From an uncultured Flavobacteriaceae bacterium (GTDB taxonomy: Bacteria; Bacteroidota; Bacteroidia; Flavobacteriales; Flavobacteriaceae), in assembly GCA_963975495.1 (NCBI GenBank), contig CAXBID010000001.1, forward strand, positions 1 through 40,800: a DNA stretch of 40,800 nt, given 5' to 3'. The position numbers were made by a program, and so were the translations under genes. This document shows positions 1,986-32,646 of the stretch, piece by piece. Each line of letters starts with the position of its first letter. Within the stretch, counting starts at the first letter, position 1. Under the pieces are notes generated by a model. The model searched no databases and was not told the origin of the DNA. It saw only the letters and a list, made by a program, of their open reading frames with translations.

Positions 1986-3020
1986 ATGTACATGACCATA
2001 ACACCACAAAAACTGGGCGATAGCTATGCAGCATCCGTTGCTGATTTTGTAGCCTATTTGGAAAAGGAAAACGAAGGCAAAACCATGGAGGACATAGAAC
2101 CCTTTTTTAACCAACATGGGGACCACATTTACAATAAGGAAGTCATCGATGAGATTGACCACAATACAGCAAAGCTCAAAAAAAATGAACCCAGATTCTA
2201 TTCCATCACCCTCAATCCAAGCCAGTATGAATTGAAACAGTTACAAAACCATTCGGTGGCTTTAAAGCAATACACTAGGGAAGTCATGAAAACCTATGCG
2301 GCATCCTTTAACCGGGAGATCAATGGTAGACCCGTCACAGTCGATGATATAAAATACTTTGCCAAAATTGAGCACGAACGCTGCTACAAGGGAAAGGACA
2401 AGGTCATTCAGGAAAATGCCCCATACCACAAAAAGATAGTGTCCCTGAAAAATGAGATACAGCAAATTAAAAGTGGAAGACAGACAGGGAATATTTCAGA
2501 GAAGCAACTACAGATCAAACAATTGGAAAAAGAAGCGCCCCATAAAATAAATGGGCAGATGATCACGCAGGGCATGGCAAAAGAAGGTTCCCAATCGCAT
2601 ATCCATATCATCGTCAGTAGAAAGGACCAATCCAATCGCTATAGCCTATCTCCAGGGAGTAAATACAAAGCATCGGAAGTAGAACTGAACGGTAAAATCG
2701 TTAAACGAGGATTTGATAGGAATGGTTTCTATAAAAATGCAGAAACCACCTTTGATACCTTATTTGAATACAAGCGCAACTATGTAGAAACCTATCAAGC
2801 AAGAAAGACCTTTGTAAAACAGCCACAACACTACTATGCTACCATAATGGGGCTGCCAACCAATGAAAAGGTTATGGCTTTTAAAATGCTAGGTAAAGCA
2901 GGACTTAATACACCGCTTATGAACATTCCGACCAATAAGGTGCAGCTTGTACTTAAGGCGATCAAACAATTAAAACGTGGCGTGGGCAAAGCCATAGAAT
3001 CAGGTTCGATTGGTATATGA
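1986..3020 (+). CDS. BtgB/MobB-type mobilisation protein, probable relaxase
   Basis: N-terminus MYMTITPQKLGDSYAASVADFVAYLEKENEGK and the histidine motif SHIHIIVSRKD. Its stop shares a 4-nt ATGA overlap with the coupling-protein gene start. Confidence 0.65.
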   Translation: MYMTITPQKLGDSYAASVADFVAYLEKENEGKTMEDIEPFFNQHGDHIYNKEVIDEIDHNTAKLKKNEPRFYSITLNPSQYELKQLQNHSVALKQYTREVMKTYAASFNREINGRPVTVDDIKYFAKIEHERCYKGKDKVIQENAPYHKKIVSLKNEIQQIKSGRQTGNISEKQLQIKQLEKEAPHKINGQMITQGMAKEGSQSHIHIIVSRKDQSNRYSLSPGSKYKASEVELNGKIVKRGFDRNGFYKNAETTFDTLFEYKRNYVETYQARKTFVKQPQHYYATIMGLPTNEKVMAFKMLGKAGLNTPLMNIPTNKVQLVLKAIKQLKRGVGKAIESGSIGI

Positions 3021-4459
3021 TGATGGCTGTGCAACATATGGGCATGTATGTGTTTTTAGCTATGCTCTTGATCGGGATGCTTTTGTATGTGCTATTTGAT
3101 AAAGACCAAAAAGCAATCCACAAAAAGTATCGGGTACATTTTAAATTAAAGTCGGGTAGGTTAAAAATAGATAATATAAAACGAGGTGTGTCCATTATTG
3201 GGTCTGCCGGTAGTGGTAAAACGGAATCTGTGGTTTACAATCTATTGCAGCATTTCAGTAAACATCATTTCTGTGGCATCATCCATGACTATAAGGATTT
3301 TGAACTCACCGAAATAGCCTATCCATTGTTTAGCAAAAATTTGGGTATAAAATTCTATACCATATCATTTGATACCATTTATTTTAAGGTAAATCCCATA
3401 GCACCCAGATACCTGCCCAATGAAGAAAGCGTCAATGAACTATCACGGGTACTCATTGAAAATCTACTGGAACATGGCGAATCCATGAATGCCACCACAC
3501 GGTTTTTTAACGATGCTGTAGAAGGGCTTTTGTCAGGGCTTATCTGGAAGCTAAAAACCGATTATCCCAAGTTTTGCACATTGCCACATCTTATAGCGGT
3601 ATTTCAAAGTATGAATACTTTAAAGCTGGTGGCTTTTTTAAGTTCCAATCTGACTTCGAAAAGTATGGCGAGTGCCTTTATAAACGGCATAGAATCCGAA
3701 AAGCAAACGGCAGGGGTGAAAAGTACCTTGGCCAACGCCTTTAAGAAAATAAGCTCCCAAAAACTATTTATGGTCTTGTCTGATGACGAAGTGCCACTTA
3801 ATATTAATAACGCAGACAATCCCTCAGTCATTTCCATAGTAAATAACCCTAAATACGAATCGGCTTATGCGCCTATCATTGCTACCATCATGCACACAGT
3901 CATCAAACAAATGAGTGTCAGAAACCAGCAAAGTGCTTTTGTTATGATGGAAGAAGCACCAACCATAAAACTGTTGAATATGCACCGCATTCCGGCAACA
4001 CTCAGAAGCTATGATATTGCCACCGTTTATGTGATGCAGGACAAAATACAGAACGATATGCTTTACGGCGACAAGGCCAGTAAGGCCATATTAAGCAACC
4101 TGTCATATCAGTTTTTTGGAAAGGTAAACGACCCCGATACTGCCAAGTATTATGAGCAGTTTTTTGAACTAATAAAGATTCCAACGAAAAGCGTCAGTCG
4201 AAGTAGTGGACTTACTTTGGAAAGCCGAATTACAAAGGGAGAAAAAGAGGTTTCCAAAAGGCGCGCAGGTATATTCTTTAGATTAAAGGAAGGGGAATTT
4301 ATTGCTTTTGCTGATGGGAAGGATCGCAAGGTGCAGTTCAAGTTACAGAAGATAGAAAAGCAAATTCCCGAATTCAAAATGGCTTATTCAGAGAGAGAGT
4401 TAAGTTTAAACTTTATGAAAGTTTATAGAGAGGTTGAGACACTTATTAAAGGAGATTAG
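3017..4459 (+). CDS. Type IV coupling protein (TraG/TraD/MobC family ATPase)
   Basis: N-terminal TM segment, Walker A GSAGSGKTES, and a conserved block FVMMEEAPTIKL. Its position after the relaxase is typical. Confidence 0.8.
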   Translation: MMMAVQHMGMYVFLAMLLIGMLLYVLFDKDQKAIHKKYRVHFKLKSGRLKIDNIKRGVSIIGSAGSGKTESVVYNLLQHFSKHHFCGIIHDYKDFELTEIAYPLFSKNLGIKFYTISFDTIYFKVNPIAPRYLPNEESVNELSRVLIENLLEHGESMNATTRFFNDAVEGLLSGLIWKLKTDYPKFCTLPHLIAVFQSMNTLKLVAFLSSNLTSKSMASAFINGIESEKQTAGVKSTLANAFKKISSQKLFMVLSDDEVPLNINNADNPSVISIVNNPKYESAYAPIIATIMHTVIKQMSVRNQQSAFVMMEEAPTIKLLNMHRIPATLRSYDIATVYVMQDKIQNDMLYGDKASKAILSNLSYQFFGKVNDPDTAKYYEQFFELIKIPTKSVSRSSGLTLESRITKGEKEVSKRRAGIFFRLKEGEFIAFADGKDRKVQFKLQKIEKQIPEFKMAYSERELSLNFMKVYREVETLIKGD

Positions 4460-4490
4460 ATTTAATATCATTAAATAATTAGACACAGAA

Positions 4491-5138
4491 CTAAAGCTTA
4501 TAAGTATTTATGATTTCAACAATATCCTCTTTAATAAATTCCCAGTGTTTACCTAAATAGCAAATAGGTTCGAAATCATTATCAGCTAGTGTGAAATCAA
4601 TAAAGTTTTTTAGTATTAATTTGGGATCATGTGCATAAGGATAACGCTGTTCGTGTAACTGTAGCATTTTTTCAATGCCATATGAATTAAAGAGCTCATG
4701 TAAATCCCAAAAATCTTTTTTTCTACCACCACGTTGAATCACATCCAACTTCATCGCAATTATTTCTTCTATTGTGGCCATTCTTATATTATCTTCTATA
4801 AAAGCAGGATGAATATAGTCATCGGTATAAAAAACATCCAATTTCAAAATGTTTTCTTTAGAATGACCTATAAAATAAGATTTTCCTAAGCCAGGATCTA
4901 TGTTTTTTAGGTGGTCAATATATGCGAAATTTTTATTCAAGTAATCATCAATCTCGTTGAAATTAATAGTACCATAAGGCGCATCACTAAACAAATCAAT
5001 ATCAATAGATTCTCTATGTCCCAGCCTTAAGCTTAAAGCTGTGCCTCCAACTAATCTAAACGGTTTAAATATTTCAGCGTTTATTAGTTTTATTAAACTT
5101 TCTCGAAGCAAATCGTTTACTGTATTGTAATATAACAT
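4491..5138 (-). CDS. AbiEii/AbiGii-family nucleotidyltransferase toxin (215 aa)
   Basis: Motif LVGGTALSLRLGHRESIDIDLF is typical of the type IV TA NTase toxin family. Confidence 0.75.
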   Translation of the reverse strand: MLYYNTVNDLLRESLIKLINAEIFKPFRLVGGTALSLRLGHRESIDIDLFSDAPYGTINFNEIDDYLNKNFAYIDHLKNIDPGLGKSYFIGHSKENILKLDVFYTDDYIHPAFIEDNIRMATIEEIIAMKLDVIQRGGRKKDFWDLHELFNSYGIEKMLQLHEQRYPYAHDPKLILKNFIDFTLADNDFEPICYLGKHWEFIKEDIVEIINTYKL

Positions 5139-5153
5139 GCCGTTATTCTATAA

Positions 5154-5639
5154 TTATATATGTGAAACGGTATATGGTTTACGAGTTGCAGACTGTAAGG
5201 TATTATCAACTTTTTTAGCACCATAAAAGCGACGTATCTCCTTTTTCTCTTCCTCATTACCACGTTCAAAAACGCGTTTAATAACCGCTTTATACAGTTT
5301 GTTCCAATCAATTTTAGAGATGTCGGTGTCCCAAAACAACGATTTTCTTAAAATAGTTAGGTCTGGGGTTCTTAAATGTTGTGATTTTTTTTCTTTATCG
5401 ATGTCGTAATACGTTTGTAAAAGCGCTAGTGTGCCCTCTTCCATATCTAATTTATGCTCAATCTTTAAAGCCATGGCAGTATTAAGATTTCTTTTGCCTT
5501 TAGTAATGGCATTAAGCGTTTGAGGATGTTCGTTTATAGATAATGCAAAAGGACGTTGACGAATCATTCGTTTCTTAAACTCACGTTCCAAAATAAAACC
5601 TGGATGAATGCCTTTGTATTTTTCTATAAACCTATTCAT
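5154..5639 (-). CDS. XRE/HigA-like HTH protein with C-terminal extension, probable antitoxin partner of 4491-5138
   Basis: IHPGFILEREF...LSINEHPQTLNAITKGKRNLNTAMALKIEHKL is a HigA-type HTH. It ends 15 nt upstream of the AbiEii-like gene. Confidence 0.65.
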   Translation of the reverse strand: MNRFIEKYKGIHPGFILEREFKKRMIRQRPFALSINEHPQTLNAITKGKRNLNTAMALKIEHKLDMEEGTLALLQTYYDIDKEKKSQHLRTPDLTILRKSLFWDTDISKIDWNKLYKAVIKRVFERGNEEEKKEIRRFYGAKKVDNTLQSATRKPYTVSHI

Positions 5640-5765
5640 AGTACAAATATAAACATTTTTGTTTACATTTTAAAAGATTAAATTAACAGATTTTTTTTAT
5701 GAGCGTTGGAAAGTAGTGGGAATAGGAAATCAGAACTTGTTTTTAATTTTTTTTAAATTTTCTAT

Positions 5766-5951
5766 TTATTCTTCCCAAATTACTGAAATAATTGTTTGAT
5801 ACTGCTTTGTTGGGATACAATATTCAAAAAAATCCGTATCATCTTCATCATCCTTTAACTCGAACCAGATTGATTTATCTATAGTTTGGGCTTTATCATT
5901 ACCAGTGTAAATATGGTTCGCTTTCTTTTGTATTTCGCCCGGTTTAATCAT
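5766..5951 (-). CDS. Short acidic hypothetical ORF (61 aa)
   Basis: ORF only. It lies in a stretch with fragmented frames downstream of the abiEi-like gene. Confidence 0.2.
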   Translation of the reverse strand: MIKPGEIQKKANHIYTGNDKAQTIDKSIWFELKDDEDDTDFFEYCIPTKQYQTIISVIWEE

Positions 5952-6042
5952 GTGAACATGGCTGATTTAATGGTTTCTATATCTAAATTCTGTTGAATGC
6001 TCCAACGACTATTTCTTTTACCTGTTTTGGGTAATTCAGTAT

Positions 6043-17658: not shown

Positions 17659-17736
17659 GATATTAAATATTAAAGTTATTCCTACTCTGTTAAAGGTTTT
17701 CGGTTCCCCTTGTTCAACTGTACAATTGAAATTTTT

Positions 17737-25052: not shown

Positions 25053-25784
25053 TTGATTGATACTATAAAAGATAAAATACAATCTTATTTTAATGAACAA
25101 TCAACCATTTCAAAAGATAAGTTGGTAGAATGTATTGTGTTTGATTTTCCTGAACTAAAAAAAAGTACTATAAACGTGTATTTATCGCGCTTAAAAAAGG
25201 AAGGGCTTATCAAAAATCCATCAAGAGGCATATATGCTCTTAAAGAGAAAAAAGCATACAGTCCAATTATAGATAGTAATTTAAAACGTTTGTTCAATAA
25301 AGTTAAAAAAGACTACCCTTTTGTAGGTTTTTGTATTTGGGATACCAAGTGGTTAAACGAATTTATGAGGCATCAACCATTTAAATTCTATACGGTTATA
25401 GAATTGGATAAAGATGTTACAGAATCGGTATTTTATGCATTAAAAGAACAAGGAAAGCAAGTTTATATAGAGCCTGATGCAGAAACTTTCAATTTGTATA
25501 TTAGCAATAGTGAAGATGTCATCATTTTAAAACATTTAATATCTGAAGCGCCACTTCAAGAAATTGACAAAATAACCTTGCCAACGCTGGAGAAGTTATT
25601 GGTAGATATGACTATTGATACTAAAGTATATGCAGCACAACAAGGCGAAATAGAATTTATTTATGCGAATGCATTTGAAAAGTATGAAGTAAATAAAAAT
25701 AAAATGAAGCGTTATGCATATAGACGCAATAGAGAAAACGAAATTGAAAATTTAACTAATTTAATTTTGGCAAAAATTGAATAA
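25053..25784 (+). CDS. AbiEi-like wHTH antitoxin/regulator
   Basis: N-terminal wHTH-like STINVYLSRLKKEGLIKNPSRGIYAL. It sits immediately upstream of an AbiEii-family gene, the typical bicistronic arrangement. Confidence 0.55.
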   Translation: MIDTIKDKIQSYFNEQSTISKDKLVECIVFDFPELKKSTINVYLSRLKKEGLIKNPSRGIYALKEKKAYSPIIDSNLKRLFNKVKKDYPFVGFCIWDTKWLNEFMRHQPFKFYTVIELDKDVTESVFYALKEQGKQVYIEPDAETFNLYISNSEDVIILKHLISEAPLQEIDKITLPTLEKLLVDMTIDTKVYAAQQGEIEFIYANAFEKYEVNKNKMKRYAYRRNRENEIENLTNLILAKIE

Positions 25785-25794
25785 TTTGCCAAAA
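25765..25794. repeat. Second TTTGGCAAA/TTTGCCAAA inverted repeat, spanning the abiEi-like stop codon
   Basis: ttttggcaaa (25765-25774) is the reverse complement of tttgccaaaa (25785-25794). The 20-mer 25784-25803 matches 25021-25040 at 18 of 20 positions. Confidence 0.5.
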
Positions 25795-25805
25795 CTTAAT
25801 TAACT

Positions 25806-26864
25806 ATGATAGAATCAACGACATACCATCCAGATTGGATTTATGAAGTCAAAAGAAATTTAGGGAAAAAGAAATTTGATCCTAAATTAATTGAGAAGGT
25901 TATATATGCATTGGTTTTTTTAGAGCAATTAAAATTAAACGGATTAGAATTTATTTTTAAAGGAGGTACAGCATTATTATTAGCAACCAAACAACCAAAA
26001 CGGTTTTCAATTGATATAGATATTATCACAGAGCAAACACAAAGTGACATAGAAACTATTCTAGAAAAAATAAGTAAAGACAGTGTGTTTACACATTGGG
26101 AAGATGACAACAATAGAAAGTATACGCCAGATGCACCAATGGGGCATTTTAAAATGTACTATACAAGCCATGTAGATGGAAGTGTTGAGCCAATACTGTT
26201 AGATGTATTATATACGCCAAATCCATATCCGGAACTCATGGAAATTCCAATAGCACACGATTGGATTCAAATAACGGGGGAAATTACGACGGTACAAATG
26301 CCAACCTTTGATGCCATATTAGGAGATAAGCTAACGGCTTTTGCACCAAGAACAACAGGAATACTTTATAGCAAAAACAGACCCGTAGAAATAATAAAGC
26401 AGTTGTTCGATGTGGCTTTTTTAATGGATAATATCACAAATTTAAAAGTAGTCCAAAATAGTTACAACAAAGTAGTTGCAGAAGAAACTAAGTTCAGAAA
26501 GTTAGATGTGTCTGTCATTCAAGTATTAGAAGACTCTCAAGAAGCTTGTTATGTATTGTCTATTAGAGATGTCAAATCAGAAGAGTTTAAACATTTTCAA
26601 TTAGGGATTAGCAATTTTACAAATTTCACAATTACAAAATTTAATATTGAGGAGGCTATTGCAGCAGCATCAAAAGCAGCTTATTTAGCAGAGATTTTAA
26701 AAAGTGAAACATTACCGAAGTTAGAGAAATTTATTAGTGCACAACAGATTAAAGATTGGTCAATTGAAAATCAACAGTTCAATAAATTGAATAAGCTAAA
26801 GAAAAGTAATCCAGAAGCATTTTTCTATTGGTATAAAACTTTAGAATTGGTAGGTAATGTTTAA
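25806..26864 (+). CDS. AbiEii/AbiGii-family nucleotidyltransferase toxin (352 aa)
   Basis: Motif FKGGTALLLATKQPKRFSIDIDII. Confidence 0.8.
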   Translation: MIESTTYHPDWIYEVKRNLGKKKFDPKLIEKVIYALVFLEQLKLNGLEFIFKGGTALLLATKQPKRFSIDIDIITEQTQSDIETILEKISKDSVFTHWEDDNNRKYTPDAPMGHFKMYYTSHVDGSVEPILLDVLYTPNPYPELMEIPIAHDWIQITGEITTVQMPTFDAILGDKLTAFAPRTTGILYSKNRPVEIIKQLFDVAFLMDNITNLKVVQNSYNKVVAEETKFRKLDVSVIQVLEDSQEACYVLSIRDVKSEEFKHFQLGISNFTNFTITKFNIEEAIAAASKAAYLAEILKSETLPKLEKFISAQQIKDWSIENQQFNKLNKLKKSNPEAFFYWYKTLELVGNV

Positions 26865-26961: not shown

Positions 26962-27306
26962 ATTTAAATGATTGGATAAGAAAAGTAAATACTATTTCCA
27001 ATACAGATGACCATTTACGAAATCATGGTTTTATTCTAACAAGTCTCGGGTGGGTATTGTCTCCAGCTTACGATTTAAATCCCTCGATAGACAAAGATGT
27101 TCTAGCGCTCAATATCGATACAGATAACAATGCACTGGATTAATTTAGCAAAAAGTGTGGGAGTGTTTTTTCGTTTAACAGAAGAGCAAATAGATAGTAT
27201 AATAAACGAAGTTAAAGCAGTTGTTTCTACTTGGGAAAATGAAGCTGACAAAATCGGGATTGCCAAAAGAGAACAAAGTATTATGGCTAAAGCGTTTAAT
27301 GTATAA
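26952..27306 (+). pseudogene. hipA: HipA-family kinase toxin, C-terminal remnant with one frameshift
   Basis: The frame open from 26952 reads ...NTDDHLRNHGFILTSLGWVLSPAYDLNPSIDKDVLALNIDTDNNALD and stops at 27141-27143. It continues in the next frame from 27145 as LAKSVGVFFRLTEEQIDSIINEVKAVVSTWENEADKIGIAKREQSIMAKAFNV, stopping at 27304-27306. No N-terminal ~300 aa and no start codon. Confidence 0.6.
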
Positions 27307-27679
27307 CAGAAAAAGACGTTTATTATTATAGGAAACAGAGCTATTTAATTTGATGGTTTTTATGGAAGAAGATTAGATTAGAGAAAATACACATTTGTAC
27401 TATAATCTTCCATTTGGAGTTTATCCCGAGCGAAGCCGAAGGGTAACTTGAGCTTTGGTTAAAACCGAAAGTTGTATTACAGTTTCATTACGATTTTAAT
27501 GGAACACTTTTTATGAGACGACGTAGGAGGGAAGTATAAAGTGTGTGAAATAGCTAGTATTGTTAATTTGTTTGTTGATAAGTTCGCCCAAAACACTAAT
27601 TATTAAATTATTAACTAATTAACTTTGTAGATACGGTTTTCCCATCTTATAGATTTTCCTCTCATTTATTAAGATTTAG

Positions 27680-27745: not shown

Positions 27746-28750
27746 ATGTCTACAAATAAAAACGAATATCTTCAAAAAGTACTTGATACTCATGATATAA
27801 ATAAAGTAGAAAGTCTAGATAAATTTATAGCAAAGAAAAATGCTGTAAAGAATGCTCTAAATGAAAAGTTTACTGAAACTAAAGCCTCTAATGCAATTGA
27901 TTCAGGCTCTTATGCTAAAAATACTGCGATAAACACAAAGTTTGATATAGATTGTTGTATACCTTTTAAGAAGAAAGAGAAAGAAGAAGATAAAGGATAT
28001 AGTAGTCTAAAAGATATGTTTGATGATGTATATAAATATTTAAGAAACGAATATACAGAAGATGACGATGATATAACAAAAGAAGATGTTAGGAAACAAA
28101 AAGTGTCTATTGGTATGAAGTTTAATATTGATGGTAAAGAATTTGATATGGATGTTGTTCCAGGTCGTGAAAGACCTAATAATAATGATTATAACAGTAA
28201 TAATACCGACTTAAGTTTACATATTCATCCTTCTAATCGCTCAAAGAAAGAAGAAGATGAGAATAGAACTCGAATTAAAACAAATATTAAAAAGCATGTT
28301 GATTTATTAAGTGGTTCAGAAAGAACACACGAACGTAAAGTAGCTAAACTGATTAAAGTTTGGAAAACAGAAAGAAAAAACCAAAATGGAGGTAAATTAA
28401 TTAAATCATTTATGATGGAATTATATACCAAAGAGGCTTTTGATGTAGCAGATGAAATACCAAGCGGTTTATGGGAAAAAGTGAAAATGGTAATGAACCA
28501 TATAATAGATAATATAACAGAAAATAATTTAGTTGACCCAATAAATTCAAACAATATAGTTTCAGATTCAATGAGTGATACAGCTAAATCTGATACTAAA
28601 CGAGATATGAAAAAGACTATTAAGGATGTAGATGAGGATTCGGATAAAATAAAGGAATATTTCCCTATAAATGATGAATATGATGATGAGGACGAAGATG
28701 ATTCAAAAGCTTCAACAGCATCGGTTTTAAGCACAAGTAAGTTTGGATAA
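27746..28750 (+). CDS. cGAS/DncV-like (CD-NTase/SMODS-type) nucleotidyltransferase with acidic C-terminal tail ending in Gly
   Basis: Pol-beta NTase catalytic set: G54-S55 (27905-27910) in DSGSYAKNTAI, D67-x-D69 (27944-27952) in FDIDCCIPF, and a third Asp D136 (28151-28153) in FDMDVVPG. A helical segment KLIKVWK follows. The tail is EYDDEDEDDSKASTASVLSTSKFG-stop. Confidence 0.7.
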   Translation: MSTNKNEYLQKVLDTHDINKVESLDKFIAKKNAVKNALNEKFTETKASNAIDSGSYAKNTAINTKFDIDCCIPFKKKEKEEDKGYSSLKDMFDDVYKYLRNEYTEDDDDITKEDVRKQKVSIGMKFNIDGKEFDMDVVPGRERPNNNDYNSNNTDLSLHIHPSNRSKKEEDENRTRIKTNIKKHVDLLSGSERTHERKVAKLIKVWKTERKNQNGGKLIKSFMMELYTKEAFDVADEIPSGLWEKVKMVMNHIIDNITENNLVDPINSNNIVSDSMSDTAKSDTKRDMKKTIKDVDEDSDKIKEYFPINDEYDDEDEDDSKASTASVLSTSKFG

Positions 28751-30890
28751 AGATCAAGACAAGAAAATAATAAAAAGAATTAATGGACTAATTAAGAAAG
28801 ATAAGGATGTAACAATTATTGAAGAAATTGAAAAAAAAGAAAATTACTTTTCAGGAAAAGTTGAAGTAAATTATAAAAATGAACAACTTTTTTTTGATTT
28901 GGAAATTCCACATCATTATCCATTAACACATCCTAATTCGGACAACATTTCTATAATTTTTAGAAATGAAGAATACATTGGTTTAAATCATATTAATCTA
29001 GATGGTTCGGTGTGTTTTCATCCAGATAAAGATGATGATTTTGATAGAAAACTATTGTATGAACTAAAATGCCTCAAACAATGGATTAGGGATTATTATA
29101 TTTTTAATAAGGAGGATGCTAATTATGCTTATTTAATACATACTACAGAAAGTGGTAGAATTGATAAGCTTTACTTCACTAGCATTCACAATAATTTTAA
29201 AAAGCACTCTTTTGGATTATTTAACTATTCTATATTTTCTGATGAGAGATATGGAGATTCAAAATTACCAATCAAAAAACTATTTAGGTTAGGATTTGAT
29301 AATGACAAAACAGATAACTGGTCGAAAACTTTTAAAGAAGAATTAAATAGAAAGACTTGTAAGAAAGGGTTGTATTATTTTATTGAAGAAGAGCCAATAA
29401 AAAAAATACTAAAAGGCAGAAAAGGTATTGAGACATGGAATGAACTCGAAGAGTTCCTTTCCGATGAATTTATAGAGTATTTATATAAGGGATTAAAAGG
29501 AAAATTTAGTAAAGGGTTTTATAATGAAAACTATCTGTTTCTAATAATCGGATATAAAATACCTAATAATGAAACCTATGAAGAGCATTGGGATTTAATT
29601 AGATTATCTAAAAAAAATATTCCAATTGAATACAGAAGAATTCCTAAACAAGAACAAGATAGTTCTGGAAAGAGTTTTCTGCATATACTAAAAAAGAATA
29701 AAATCAATTGGAGGACAACAGAAAACATAGATTATAAACGGTTTTTTGGAAGAGGAAAACTAGATGATAAAATCACAAATTCTAGTATTTTAATTATTGG
29801 TTGTGGAGCTTTAGGAAGTTCTTTAGCTGAAACACTAGTTAGGGGCGGAGCAAGAAATATAATTCTTGAAGATTTCGACACAATCAAGGGAGGGAATTTA
29901 TGTCGTGCAAATTATGACCTAAATGATATGATTTTCCCAAAAACTGTTTGCTTATCTAAAAGACTAAAATCAATTTCTCCATTTGTAAATTTAATTACAA
30001 TAGGAGCCAAACTAAATAATGTTGATTTAGATAAAATAAAAACTGTTTTCAATGATAATGTTGACCTGATTTTTGATTGCTCAACTGACCCAGAAGTGAC
30101 TTATATTTTAGATAAAATTAATTTTAAAGGAGATACATTTAGTTTAGCAATTACCAACAATGCTAAATCTTTTGTTTCTATAACTGGATTAGACTTGTCA
30201 AAAAAAGCCAAAATTATATTTAATTATGTAGAAAATGAGCCTCCAAAATTTATTGAAGGTACAGGCTGTGGTTATCCAACTTTTGAAGCAAATTATAATG
30301 ACATAATCACTTTACTAAATACTGGATTAAAAGTGATAAATGATAATTTTTCTAAAAATAAAAAGAACCAAACTTTTATTATTAAACCCGATTTTGAAGA
30401 CGAGTTAATAATTGATATCGAAGAATATGAATATTATAAATGTGATTATAATAATAGTGCAATCCACATATCTAAAAGTATTTTAAGGGAAATAGAAGAA
30501 ATTACGAGTTTCCATTATCCAAAGGAGTTTGGAGGTGTTTTTATTGGTTTTAAATCAGAATTAGGTTTTATTATTACTGATGTTTTAGTGCCAGATAAAT
30601 ATGTAAATGCAAGAGCTATTTTTATAAGACATCCTGGAACTTTAAATGAAAGGTTAGAAGAAATACATAAATTAACTAATGGTAAAATTCAATATTTAGG
30701 TGAATGGCATTCACATCCAGATGGACCAACTTCTCCTAGTAATACAGATAAAAATGCTATGAAAGAAATAGCACTGAACAAAAAAATTAATATTGATAAA
30801 CCTTTACTAATGATTGCAGAAGTAGGGCAATTGCCTTTTGGTAAAGATTTATATATATATGACAATAAAGAATTAAGAAAATATGAGTGA
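28743..30890 (+). CDS. Triple-fusion E2-like / E1-like (ThiF) / JAB deubiquitinase-like protein (Cap2+Cap3-like in one polypeptide)
   Basis: E2: H63-P-N65 and Cys91 in DGSVCFHP (29013-29015). E1: Rossmann G353-C-G-A-L-G358 (29799-29816), then EDFDTIKGGNLCRANY and DCSTD. JAB: EWH656SH658PDGPTSPS666NTD669 is an exact HxHx7Sx2D motif (30708-30749), with upstream Glu in PKEFGG. The ORF opens at 28731; TTG 28743 is the only plausible start. Confidence 0.85.
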   Translation: MDKDQDKKIIKRINGLIKKDKDVTIIEEIEKKENYFSGKVEVNYKNEQLFFDLEIPHHYPLTHPNSDNISIIFRNEEYIGLNHINLDGSVCFHPDKDDDFDRKLLYELKCLKQWIRDYYIFNKEDANYAYLIHTTESGRIDKLYFTSIHNNFKKHSFGLFNYSIFSDERYGDSKLPIKKLFRLGFDNDKTDNWSKTFKEELNRKTCKKGLYYFIEEEPIKKILKGRKGIETWNELEEFLSDEFIEYLYKGLKGKFSKGFYNENYLFLIIGYKIPNNETYEEHWDLIRLSKKNIPIEYRRIPKQEQDSSGKSFLHILKKNKINWRTTENIDYKRFFGRGKLDDKITNSSILIIGCGALGSSLAETLVRGGARNIILEDFDTIKGGNLCRANYDLNDMIFPKTVCLSKRLKSISPFVNLITIGAKLNNVDLDKIKTVFNDNVDLIFDCSTDPEVTYILDKINFKGDTFSLAITNNAKSFVSITGLDLSKKAKIIFNYVENEPPKFIEGTGCGYPTFEANYNDIITLLNTGLKVINDNFSKNKKNQTFIIKPDFEDELIIDIEEYEYYKCDYNNSAIHISKSILREIEEITSFHYPKEFGGVFIGFKSELGFIITDVLVPDKYVNARAIFIRHPGTLNERLEEIHKLTNGKIQYLGEWHSHPDGPTSPSNTDKNAMKEIALNKKINIDKPLLMIAEVGQLPFGKDLYIYDNKELRKYE

Positions 30891-31714
30891 TAAAATCAAT
30901 TTAAGAAAACTATTTGGAGGCTTACAAAACCAAATGATAGCTCAATTAAATACTAATAGAGAATTTATTGAACACCCAGATTCTAAAGGGGATTCTTTAG
31001 AAAATACATGGATTGAATGGTTAAGAACCTATTTACCAAATAGATATTGTGTTGATAAAGCAATTGTTATTGATTCAAAAGGACAATTGAGTCATCAAAT
31101 CGACTTGGTTATTTATGACCAAACTTATACACCTTTTGTATTTAAACAAAATGGAATTTTTTATATACCAGCAGAAGGAGTATATGCTGTTTTTGAAGTG
31201 AAACCAGACCTTGATAAAGGTAATATTATTTATGCAGGTGATAAAATTGAAAGTGTTCGAAAACTATTTAGAACATCTACAAAAATAATAGATAGAGGTA
31301 AACCATATAATGCTAGACCTTTAACTAATTCTTGGTGGTGTTCTAACTATAGAAACTAAAATAAAAGATGAAACAATCGAGGGGCACCTCAAAAGTTTAA
31401 AAGGGCTAAAATCAATTGATATTGGTTGTGCGGTAAAGAATAAAAGTTTTTATGTAGATTATAATAAAGATGATAGCATTTTTGACATCGATAGAGATGT
31501 AATTTTATCTTTCAAAGAGCATAATGATTTAATTCTTAAATTTTACAATGAGCGAAATGTGAAAAATATTGAGTTTAGTAAGAAGAATAATTCTTTAGTA
31601 ACGTTCTTTTTACAATTGACAAGGTATTTACAACAAAGTATTGGAACTGTTGCGGCTATTGATTTGTCAGAATATGCGAAAGCTGTTAACTTTGAAATAG
31701 ATGAGGAAATATAA
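30883..31714 (+). pseudogene. PD-(D/E)xK-type nuclease-like effector, split by a +1 frame change near 31321-31333
   Basis: Part 1 (30883-31359) carries SHQIDLVIYD ... VYAVFEVKPDL (D...ExK) and an N-terminal KGDSLENTWIEWLRTYLPNRY block that I recall from the DUF6602-type family. Part 2 is the adjacent frame, open 31325-31711 for 129 codons with no stop and no Met, ending at stop 31712-31714. Confidence 0.65.
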
Positions 31715-31724
31715 ATATCTTTAA

Positions 31725-32105
31725 ATGGAAGAAATAAATTTAAAAATGATTCAAGATTTATTTGAATCTGGTTCTCTTGAATTGATAGCAACACAACCAG
31801 GAGTTTGTCTGCCAATGTTGCAGAGAATATACAAGAAAATGAAGGTTGGAATAGAATTTGCTGATATTAGAGTAAATGACTCAAGAATAGTTGATGGCCA
31901 TCATAGATATATTTGTTCCAAACTTTTAAATATAGATATAGGAATCAATAATAATTATCCAATACCATCTACAGCTGAAAGTCATAAGTGGGAAGTTTTA
32001 GTCATTGACGAATTTGATTTCGAGACAGAAGAAGAAATTAAAAACCATAATTTGAGAGATGCTGAAATAAATGATGTAGATTTTGATTTTTTAAACAGTT
32101 TATAA
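31725..32105 (+). CDS. Small ParB/sulfiredoxin-fold (DGHHR motif) protein
   Basis: RIVDGHHRYICSK (D57-R61, nt 31893-31907) matches the ParB N-terminal/Srx catalytic-loop motif. The gene starts 10 nt after the nuclease stop. Confidence 0.5.
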   Translation: MEEINLKMIQDLFESGSLELIATQPGVCLPMLQRIYKKMKVGIEFADIRVNDSRIVDGHHRYICSKLLNIDIGINNNYPIPSTAESHKWEVLVIDEFDFETEEEIKNHNLRDAEINDVDFDFLNSL

Positions 32106-32126
32106 AATAATGTATATATTTGTAAT

Positions 32127-32597
32127 ATGTTAATATTGTTAGACATAGACGGAGTAATGGTTCCTGCAAACAATTGGAAACGACCAGAATTTGAAAGTGA
32201 TGGATTTCCGAGGTTCAGTAGAAAAGCCACAGATAGCCTTCAGAAAATTATTTCTGAAACAGGTGCAGAAATTCTATTGACTACTTCTCATAAGTCTAAT
32301 TACTATGTTGGTGAATGGAGAAATATTTTTTCGAGTAGAGGTGTTTTAAATGCTAAAATTAGAAAACTAAATAAAAATTCTAATTATCTTACTAGAATGG
32401 AAGAGGTAATGAAATGGGTTGCAAAAAACAATGAAAAGGAATTCGTTATAATTGACGATGATAAGACTTTAAATAGTTTGCCACCTAGAATAAAATCACG
32501 ACTTGTGCAACCTAGTGCAACGGTTGGTTTAAATGAAGAGCTAGCTGATTCTGCCATTAGAATATTAAAATCTTCTAATAAAGAACTAGTTATTTAA
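32127..32597 (+). CDS. HAD-superfamily phosphatase-like protein
   Basis: Motif I LLDIDGVMV (DxD at 32142-32150), motif II LLTTSHK, and a late acidic motif FVIIDDD. Confidence 0.6.
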   Translation: MLILLDIDGVMVPANNWKRPEFESDGFPRFSRKATDSLQKIISETGAEILLTTSHKSNYYVGEWRNIFSSRGVLNAKIRKLNKNSNYLTRMEEVMKWVAKNNEKEFVIIDDDKTLNSLPPRIKSRLVQPSATVGLNEELADSAIRILKSSNKELVI

Positions 32598-32618: not shown

Positions 32619-32646
32619 AAAACCCTTTCAATTGAGAGGGTTTTTT
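32619..32646 (+). terminator. Rho-independent terminator closing the 27746-32597 operon
   Basis: aaaaccctttc / gagagggtttt form a stem around the loop aatt, followed by a T-run. Confidence 0.7.

Follow-up and report, generated by a model that had tools for sequence, protein, structure and literature searches.

The stretch of DNA considered here, called the window, comprises 40,800 nucleotides (nt) from an uncultured Flavobacteriaceae bacterium (contig CAXBID010000001.1). Between positions 27746 and 32597 it carries five closely spaced genes that very probably represent two cassettes and not a five-gene system: a three-gene type II anti-phage signalling system based on cyclic oligonucleotides (CBASS), followed by a separate pair of genes for a ParB-like protein and a haloacid dehalogenase (HAD) phosphatase. 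The first three genes are of a known kind, already present in defence-profile libraries: a type II CBASS whose effector is NucC and whose Cap2 and Cap3 are fused. They are assigned to type II CBASS because their products show full-length PADLOC matches, matches in PDB, conserved catalytic residues and, in the nucleotidyltransferase, a C-terminal Gly. The five open reading frames (ORFs) were initially recognized in a reading made from the letters of the DNA alone (the sequence-only reading). They are confirmed, with junctions of −8, −8, +10 and +21 nt once the end of nucC is repaired, and with the terminator that closes the unit (Table 1).

The CBASS core

The components expected of a type II CBASS are all present: a cGAS/DncV-like nucleotidyltransferase (CD-NTase) of the SMODS family with a C-terminal Gly, Cap2, Cap3 (as a fused domain, not as a separate gene) and a NucC effector. 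A genome scan and two context look-ups yielded six related CBASS loci, each from another lineage (Table 1), which display the same gene order with overlapping junctions and with products of ∼330–338 amino acids (aa) for the CD-NTase, ∼708–716 aa for the fusion and ∼268–278 aa for NucC. Identity of the core proteins to those of the window ranges from 45 to 91%, and the fusion accounts for the lowest value.

The CD-NTase scores 31.5 bits with the Pfam SMODS model (cutoff 26.5), and its residues 4–309 match the PADLOC Cyclase profile PDLC00803 with an expectation value (E) of 4.9e-67. Active-site residues are found at the anticipated places (GS 54–55, D67xD69 and D134xD136). No AbiEii or MNT match is seen, and NTP_transf_2 stays below its cutoff. 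The sole PDB sequence match with E ≤ 0.01 is a weak one to CdnC of Escherichia coli MS115-1 (6P80); weaker matches to OAS2 and CdnE appear in the PDB profile search. An AlphaFold single-sequence run on this protein gave a predicted local distance difference test score (pLDDT) of 41 and is unusable.

A C-terminal Gly or Ala marks the CD-NTases of Cap2/Cap3 operons and is the residue that Cap2 conjugates (PMC10097602). The window protein ends in ...STSKFG, and ...SKFG is kept in L003 and L004. Its acidic C-terminal tail is probably flexible, and Gly334 is the predicted conjugation site. The CD-NTases of L001 and L002 (8995–10002) end in ...SKFGY, one residue beyond the Gly. Removal of this extra Tyr would be required, perhaps by the fused JAB domain. 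Ubiquitin precursors undergo a comparable C-terminal trimming.

The second gene product joins E2, E1 and JAB domains in one chain, as the sequence-only reading had proposed. The PADLOC CBASS E1-E2 profile PDLC00827 covers residues 7–715 (profile positions 3–708 of 711, E 1.3e-250). Since this profile matches end to end, the triple fusion including JAB is an already catalogued CBASS family. The unfused Cap2 profile PDLC00852 matches residues 9–562 (E 6.4e-128) and the JAB profile PDLC00890 residues 565–715 (E 4.2e-32), both from PADLOC; Pfam recognizes ThiF (E 1.6e-19) and Prok-JAB (E 6.6e-12). The best PDB match is Cap2 of Enterobacter cloacae (7TO3), with E 4e-11 over the E1 region. Every motif named in the sequence-only reading for the nucleotidyltransferase and the fusion is present. 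In the fusion these are the E2 residues HPN 63–65 and Cys91, the E1 adenylation loop GCGALG at 353–358 (GxGxxG) and an exact JAMM motif, H656-S-H658-x7-S666-x2-D669, to which E585 is added. C509 aligns with the C548A position of the 7TO3 construct and is the predicted E1 Cys.

The fused Cap2-Cap3 architecture is an established and widespread one, centred on Bacteroidota. Clustered at 90% identity, the ThiF plus Prok-JAB fusions of 699–719 aa found in a protein search fell into at least 70 clusters, most of them from Bacteroidota; under ∼40% identity the matches turn into ordinary unfused Cap2 proteins of ∼550 aa. The NCBI name of the fused proteins is only ‘ThiF family adenylyltransferase’, and a literature search found no paper that describes or characterizes a Cap2-Cap3 fusion.

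The third gene encodes the effector. It matches Pfam DUF6602 (E 1.1e-32) and the PADLOC ‘Endonuclease (NucC)’ profile PDLC00745 (E 6e-68), and an intact homologue matches E. coli NucC (PDB 6P7O, E 1.3e-43) and keeps the catalytic D...E-x-K residues. The NucC trimer has an allosteric pocket for the cyclic trinucleotide cA3, and hexamerization switches the nuclease on (PMC10419184). With a sensing pocket of this kind, a NucC effector needs neither a SAVED nor a STING domain. The earlier proposal of an effector lacking a nucleotide sensor is thus not upheld, and neither is that of an undescribed immunity variant, since PADLOC CBASS profiles match the three core proteins essentially over their full length.

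Several observations weigh against the assignment as set out so far. The NCBIfam CBASS cyclase model matches the CD-NTase far under its curated cutoff, and the NCBIfam Cap3 equivalog gives the fusion 48 bits against a cutoff of 200. The E2 domain is recognized through Cap2 profiles only; Pfam UQ_con is marginal (E 0.097) and below threshold. As the NCBIfam cyclase and Cap3 scores lie far below their curated cutoffs, they point to a divergent lineage. In addition, cA3 is taken as the most likely product purely from the type of effector and the weak CdnC match (E 1e-4).

A mechanism may be proposed in which enzyme identities and catalytic residues are assigned by homology and the individual steps are modelled on characterized relatives; the working of NucC and the roles of type II CBASS proteins are drawn from published work (PMC10419184; PMC10097602). 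The Cap2 part would adenylate Gly334 of the CD-NTase, which would then be passed via thioesters on E1 C509 and E2 C91 and conjugated to target lysines. Conjugation would prime cyclase activity, and the JAB domain, tethered in cis, would remove the conjugates. Upon phage infection the CD-NTase would make a cyclic oligonucleotide, most likely 3′3′3′-cAAA because the effector is NucC. Nucleotide-bound NucC trimers would pair to hexamers and shred double-stranded DNA, and the infected cell would die. The window copy, with its truncated NucC, would be expected to signal without killing.

The ParB-like/HAD pair and its surroundings

The ParB-like protein carries an invariant R-x-V-D-G-H-H-R motif and has 29 close homologues. 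Its family comprises 283 representatives, nearly all of them stand-alone proteins of ∼125 aa. The AlphaFold2 model (pLDDT 94) resembles phage ParB-like and ParB-Srx proteins of the BFVD database in part (probability 1.0, E ∼0.01–0.03, template modelling score ∼0.4, 55–73 aligned columns). In PDB nothing significant was found with Foldseek or sequence-profile searches, and there is no match among Pfam, NCBIfam or PADLOC models. The ParB/Srx label given to this gene in the sequence-only reading is therefore weakly supported; it is plausible from the partial structural matches, the DGHHR motif and the UniRef name. The HAD-like label of the following gene stood. Its product scores 90.9 bits with Pfam HAD_SAK_2 (cutoff 27.5, E 1.2e-25, profile positions 1–137 of 139). 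It retains the motifs DIDGV, TTSHK and IIDDD, and across 40 homologues the catalytic motifs show conservation of at least 95%. The conservation of motifs I–IV indicates a bona fide HAD phosphatase, and a PDB profile search gave no match for this protein.

The contexts of the pair come from 33 metagenomic loci and 10 look-ups and extend down to an identity of 30%; most of them are without CBASS. In every context with enough sequence the HAD_SAK_2 gene lies ∼10–25 nt after the ParB-like gene. Usable upstream sequence is available for 27 distinct pair loci; about 21 of these have no CBASS, Pycsar (pyrimidine cyclase system for anti-phage resistance) or capH/capP gene immediately upstream. Conversely, the pair follows NucC in one of the six related CBASS loci, L002, and is missing in L001, L003, L004, L056 and L057. 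The pair is hence very probably an autonomous cassette that landed directly behind nucC, and not a required CBASS component. Neither of its proteins matches any PADLOC model. No relative of the ParB-like protein was detected in the viral contigs searched, which argues against a phage anti-defence origin. A guess at the role of the pair is NTP-dependent processing of nucleotides or of nucleic-acid ends. In conflict systems, ParB/Srx domains typically have NTPase and/or non-specific DNase activity (PMC5512222), and a HAD phosphatase serves as a nucleotide-depleting immune effector in Chp (PMC12715507). A literature search for HAD_SAK_2 or ParB as a CBASS accessory was negative.

The slot after nucC is variable among the related CBASS loci. 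In L001 (12956–14524) it holds a gene for a ChaC-like gamma-glutamylcyclotransferase, which overlaps nucC by 4 nt, and one for an AbiV-like HEPN protein. L004 (10565–11571) has two ORFs without a family. L003 (6131–7204) has a second, divergent CD-NTase-like protein, 28% identical, which lacks a C-terminal tail and bears a Gly-rich hydrophobic segment at its N-terminus. No gene of the same orientation follows NucC in L056 and L057.

The intergenic stretches around the cassettes consist of dispersed modular repeats. For one of them, an element of ∼180 nt termed ‘unit P’, blastn located 26 copies at 17 loci, and every copy has the orientation of the genes downstream of it. The element lies upstream of the CD-NTase in the window, L001, L002 and L003, and also upstream of some ParB-like genes. 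Unit P has no Rfam family, and support from RNA structure and covariation is weak. It may serve as a promoter/operator or mark cassette boundaries in the manner of a miniature inverted-repeat transposable element. A conserved stretch after the HAD gene of other loci was considered as a structured non-coding RNA and rejected: Rfam gave no match, RNAalifold gave −7.55 kcal/mol with two covarying pairs, and the stretch proved to be dispersed repeats. A hairpin homologous to the terminator-like one of the window is also present after the HAD gene in other loci. The distribution of the repeats suggests that they mark cassette hot spots where defence and accessory cassettes gather next to one another.

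No repeat accompanies the pair in the window, where 10 nt separate it from the nucC stop. Its transcription therefore probably depends on read-through or on a promoter within nucC, for which a Bacteroidota consensus match in the 3′ end of that gene is a candidate. Two such matches are found in the 40.8-kb window with 1.69 expected by chance, and only the position of this one is suggestive; it is not conserved in other loci. Upstream of the ParB-like gene, no Bacteroidota promoter recurs consistently from locus to locus.

Both cassettes are low-GC cargo (27–30% in this region vs 35–40% in the flanks) of a CTnDOT-like integrative and conjugative element (ICE) of a marine Flavobacteriaceae bacterium, beside AbiE genes. 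RteC lies on one side and the transfer genes TraG, TraM and DUF4138 on the other, and a T4 coupling protein was also found. Together with the CBASS profiles, these bear out the earlier proposal of an ICE-borne immunity locus that combines a nucleotidyltransferase with ubiquitin-like conjugation. Just upstream of CBASS is an AbiEi (DUF6577)/AbiEii pair, of the toxin-antitoxin type of abortive infection, at 25053–26864. It is followed by a truncated HipA_C remnant, a pseudogene fragment at 26985–27306 (E 3e-12). Within the cargo of the ICE, AbiEi/AbiEii, the HipA_C remnant and CBASS make up a small defence island. Elsewhere in the window, and unrelated to the CBASS locus, an Rfam DUF805b RNA motif is present upstream of a MauE-family gene (17679–17712 on the minus strand, 44.1 bits, above the gathering score).

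Table 1. Features of the locus, related CBASS loci, copies of unit P, and systems found directly upstream of the ParB-like/HAD pair
Feature	Location	Strand	Remarks
CD-NTase	27746..28750	+	334 aa; Pfam SMODS, PADLOC PDLC00803
Cap2-Cap3 fusion	28743..30890	+	715 aa; E2, E1 and JAB/JAMM domains
nucC	30883..31714	+	ORF stops at 31359 (158 aa); remainder in +1 frame from ∼31325
ParB/Srx-like gene (gene 4)	31725..32105	+	126 aa; first gene of two-gene cassette
HAD_SAK_2 phosphatase gene (gene 5)	32127..32597	+	156 aa; second gene of cassette
Intrinsic-terminator-like hairpin	32619..32644	+	11 pairs, 4 GC, T-rich tail; closes transcription unit
Unit P copy	27392..27560	+	∼180-nt dispersed intergenic element, 190–350 nt 5′ of CD-NTase start
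Bacteroidota promoter consensus match	31663..31694	+	TTTG-N20-TAACTTTG, inside nucC 3′ end, 31 nt 5′ of gene 4
Related CBASS loci	L001 Seonamhaeicola; L002 Flavobacteriaceae metagenome-assembled genome; L003 Ancylomarina; L004 Algibacter; L056 Flavobacterium sp. AG291; L057 JGI metagenome contig		
Unit P copies	L001 8640-8815; L002 8643-8804; L003 136-306		
Unit P copies	L004 5597-5779, 4727-4894; L024 6956-7122, 8385-8564; L029 several		
Type II CBASS-NucC upstream of pair	window, L002		pair co-oriented, immediately downstream
Type I CBASS (patatin-like CapV + cyclase) upstream of pair	L029 5208-8866		pair co-oriented, immediately downstream
Pycsar PycTM + PycC + PDC-S16/DUF2188 gene upstream of pair	L010 4890-7870 / L011		pair co-oriented, immediately downstream
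capH/capP-like regulators upstream of pair	L014 91-2564 (divergent PycTM), L026 2924-4692, L028		pair co-oriented, immediately downstream

One system or two, and the state of nucC

The division into two cassettes is to be weighed against two readings that place all five genes in one system. The sequence-only reading held that they form a novel five-gene nucleotidyltransferase/ubiquitin-like system with a sensor-less nuclease as effector. The tight spacing and single terminator fit that proposal, and the triple fusion is unlike the textbook layout, in which Cap2 and Cap3 have a gene each. The +10/+21 nt gaps and the lone terminator are, moreover, a point against separating the pair from CBASS, as they fit co-transcription of genes 4 and 5 with it. 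However, homologous cassettes are already catalogued: the fusion has its own full-length PADLOC profile, and NCBIfam uses the name ‘cap2_3’ for a protein of the 6A-MBL system. The effector is a clear NucC homologue. As a set, the five genes are not conserved, since the core recurs without genes 4 and 5 in five of the six related loci and the pair is found mostly without CBASS. The sequence-only reading had itself named such cataloguing and a lack of co-occurrence as refuting outcomes, and a novel five-gene system is accordingly very improbable. Another proposal is that the pair is a modular accessory of CBASS and Pycsar, which might tune nucleotide pools, clear the breakdown products of the signal or limit self-toxicity, such that the five genes cooperate. 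About 6 of the 27 distinct pair loci sit directly behind a cyclic-nucleotide defence operon or capH/capP regulators, which tells against complete independence of the pair. This proportion is far above what random neighbours would give; four kinds of cyclic-nucleotide system are found upstream of the pair (Table 1), the gaps are tight (1–31 nt in four cases), and Chp offers a precedent for HAD phosphatases that deplete nucleotides (PMC12715507). On the other side stand the ∼21 loci without such a neighbour and the absence of the pair from most of the related Cap2-3/NucC cassettes (5/6). The neighbourhoods are full of dispersed repeats and other defence candidates, which fits a common cassette hot spot, and there are neither PADLOC matches for the two proteins nor viral contigs with the pair. 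The accessory role is considered rather unlikely. It is similarly doubtful that the pair represents an undescribed two-gene module tied to cyclic-nucleotide immunity, be it as an accessory or regulator that docks behind type I CBASS, type II CBASS, Pycsar or capH/capP, or as an independent small defence system, directed at nucleotides and located in the same hot spots. Two cassettes, brought side by side, remain the preferred reading.

A different question is whether the CBASS of the source organism is intact. In the window, nucC displays a 2-nt deletion in an A4 run at 31326–31328, ACTAAAATT -> ACTAATT when aligned to L001–L004. Residue 148 of NucC is the last normal one and is followed by 10 aberrant residues and a stop after residue 158. 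The locus might thus be a decaying, non-functional CBASS whose effector was inactivated, for example to escape autoimmunity, with the signalling and conjugation genes kept. The deletion truncates NucC and removes its C-terminal half, which is probably needed for assembly and activation. This reading is possible, but on balance unlikely. Six public contigs (L017–L022; Tara, other ENA and Logan) match the window at 100% identity for up to 12.4 kb, the 2-nt gap excepted, and all six encode an intact NucC of 277 aa. In L017 (TARA scaffold_945) the intact three-gene cassette occupies 2020–5990. These contigs, which all span the site with the A4 run intact, come from at least four samples and assemblies. 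No record of the truncated product was found, no further mutations have accumulated, and an error in assembly or consensus calling could explain the loss of 2 nt from a homopolymer. The lesion is therefore either private to the window copy or an artefact, and the natural element carries the complete system. Programmed frameshifting in nucC was also considered and is rejected, as the otherwise identical contigs have the gene in frame. One low-coverage metagenomic contig of the same element, L021, lacks 145 nt inside the HAD gene (∼position 1050; window 32332–32476), which represents either population heterogeneity or an assembly artefact.

Significance and comparison with known systems

The main outcome of the assignment is a corrected annotation: type II CBASS, with NucC and a Cap2-Cap3 fusion, in place of a new system. 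As a compact three-gene system with writer and eraser in one chain, it offers a convenient minimal model for the balance between conjugation and deconjugation of the CD-NTase. The pair and the dispersed repeats hint at a cassette-style defence cargo in marine Flavobacteriaceae that could be mined systematically. The recurrent placement of the pair beside cyclic-nucleotide defence operons, with a cassette organization bounded by repeats, is a thread worth following.

The type II CBASS loci described from Vibrio cholerae, E. cloacae and Bacillus cereus WPySW2 share with this locus a SMODS CD-NTase with a C-terminal Gly, the E2/E1 Cys residues and adenylation loop of Cap2, a JAMM isopeptidase, overlapping operon genes and an abortive-infection effector activated by a cyclic oligonucleotide. 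The locus differs in that Cap3 is fused to the C-terminus of Cap2, which gives three genes instead of four, and in that the effector is NucC and not CapV, Cap4 or Cap5. Its proteins are also very divergent from those described, with an E value of only 4e-11 to 7TO3 and NCBIfam scores below cutoffs. The cap2_3 protein of the 6A-MBL system (NCBIfam NF058523) is likewise a single chain with E1 and JAB, and its model matches residues 342–689 of the fusion (E 3e-42). The score of 145 bits is, however, far under the equivalog cutoff of 320, the N-terminal E2 region is not covered by the model, and the CBASS locus has no metallo-beta-lactamase partner.

Compared with the NucC proteins of the E. coli MS115-1 type III CBASS and of type III CRISPR systems, the effector is homologous over ∼200 residues and keeps the PD-(D/E)xK site (IDLVIYD...FEVK). 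It belongs to the same size class, yet its C-terminal region is ∼35 residues longer (277 vs 241 aa). Here NucC is partnered with Cap2/Cap3 and not with HORMA/TRIP13, and the window copy is frameshifted. The phosphatase of the pair is a full-length HAD_SAK_2 domain of the same family as that of the ‘Swiss Army Knife’ (SAK) RNA-repair proteins, with the catalytic motifs intact. In contrast to SAK proteins and to the Chp CARF-HAD effectors, it is a stand-alone protein of 156 aa with no ligase, kinase, CARF or transmembrane domain, and its invariable partner is a small ParB/Srx-like protein.

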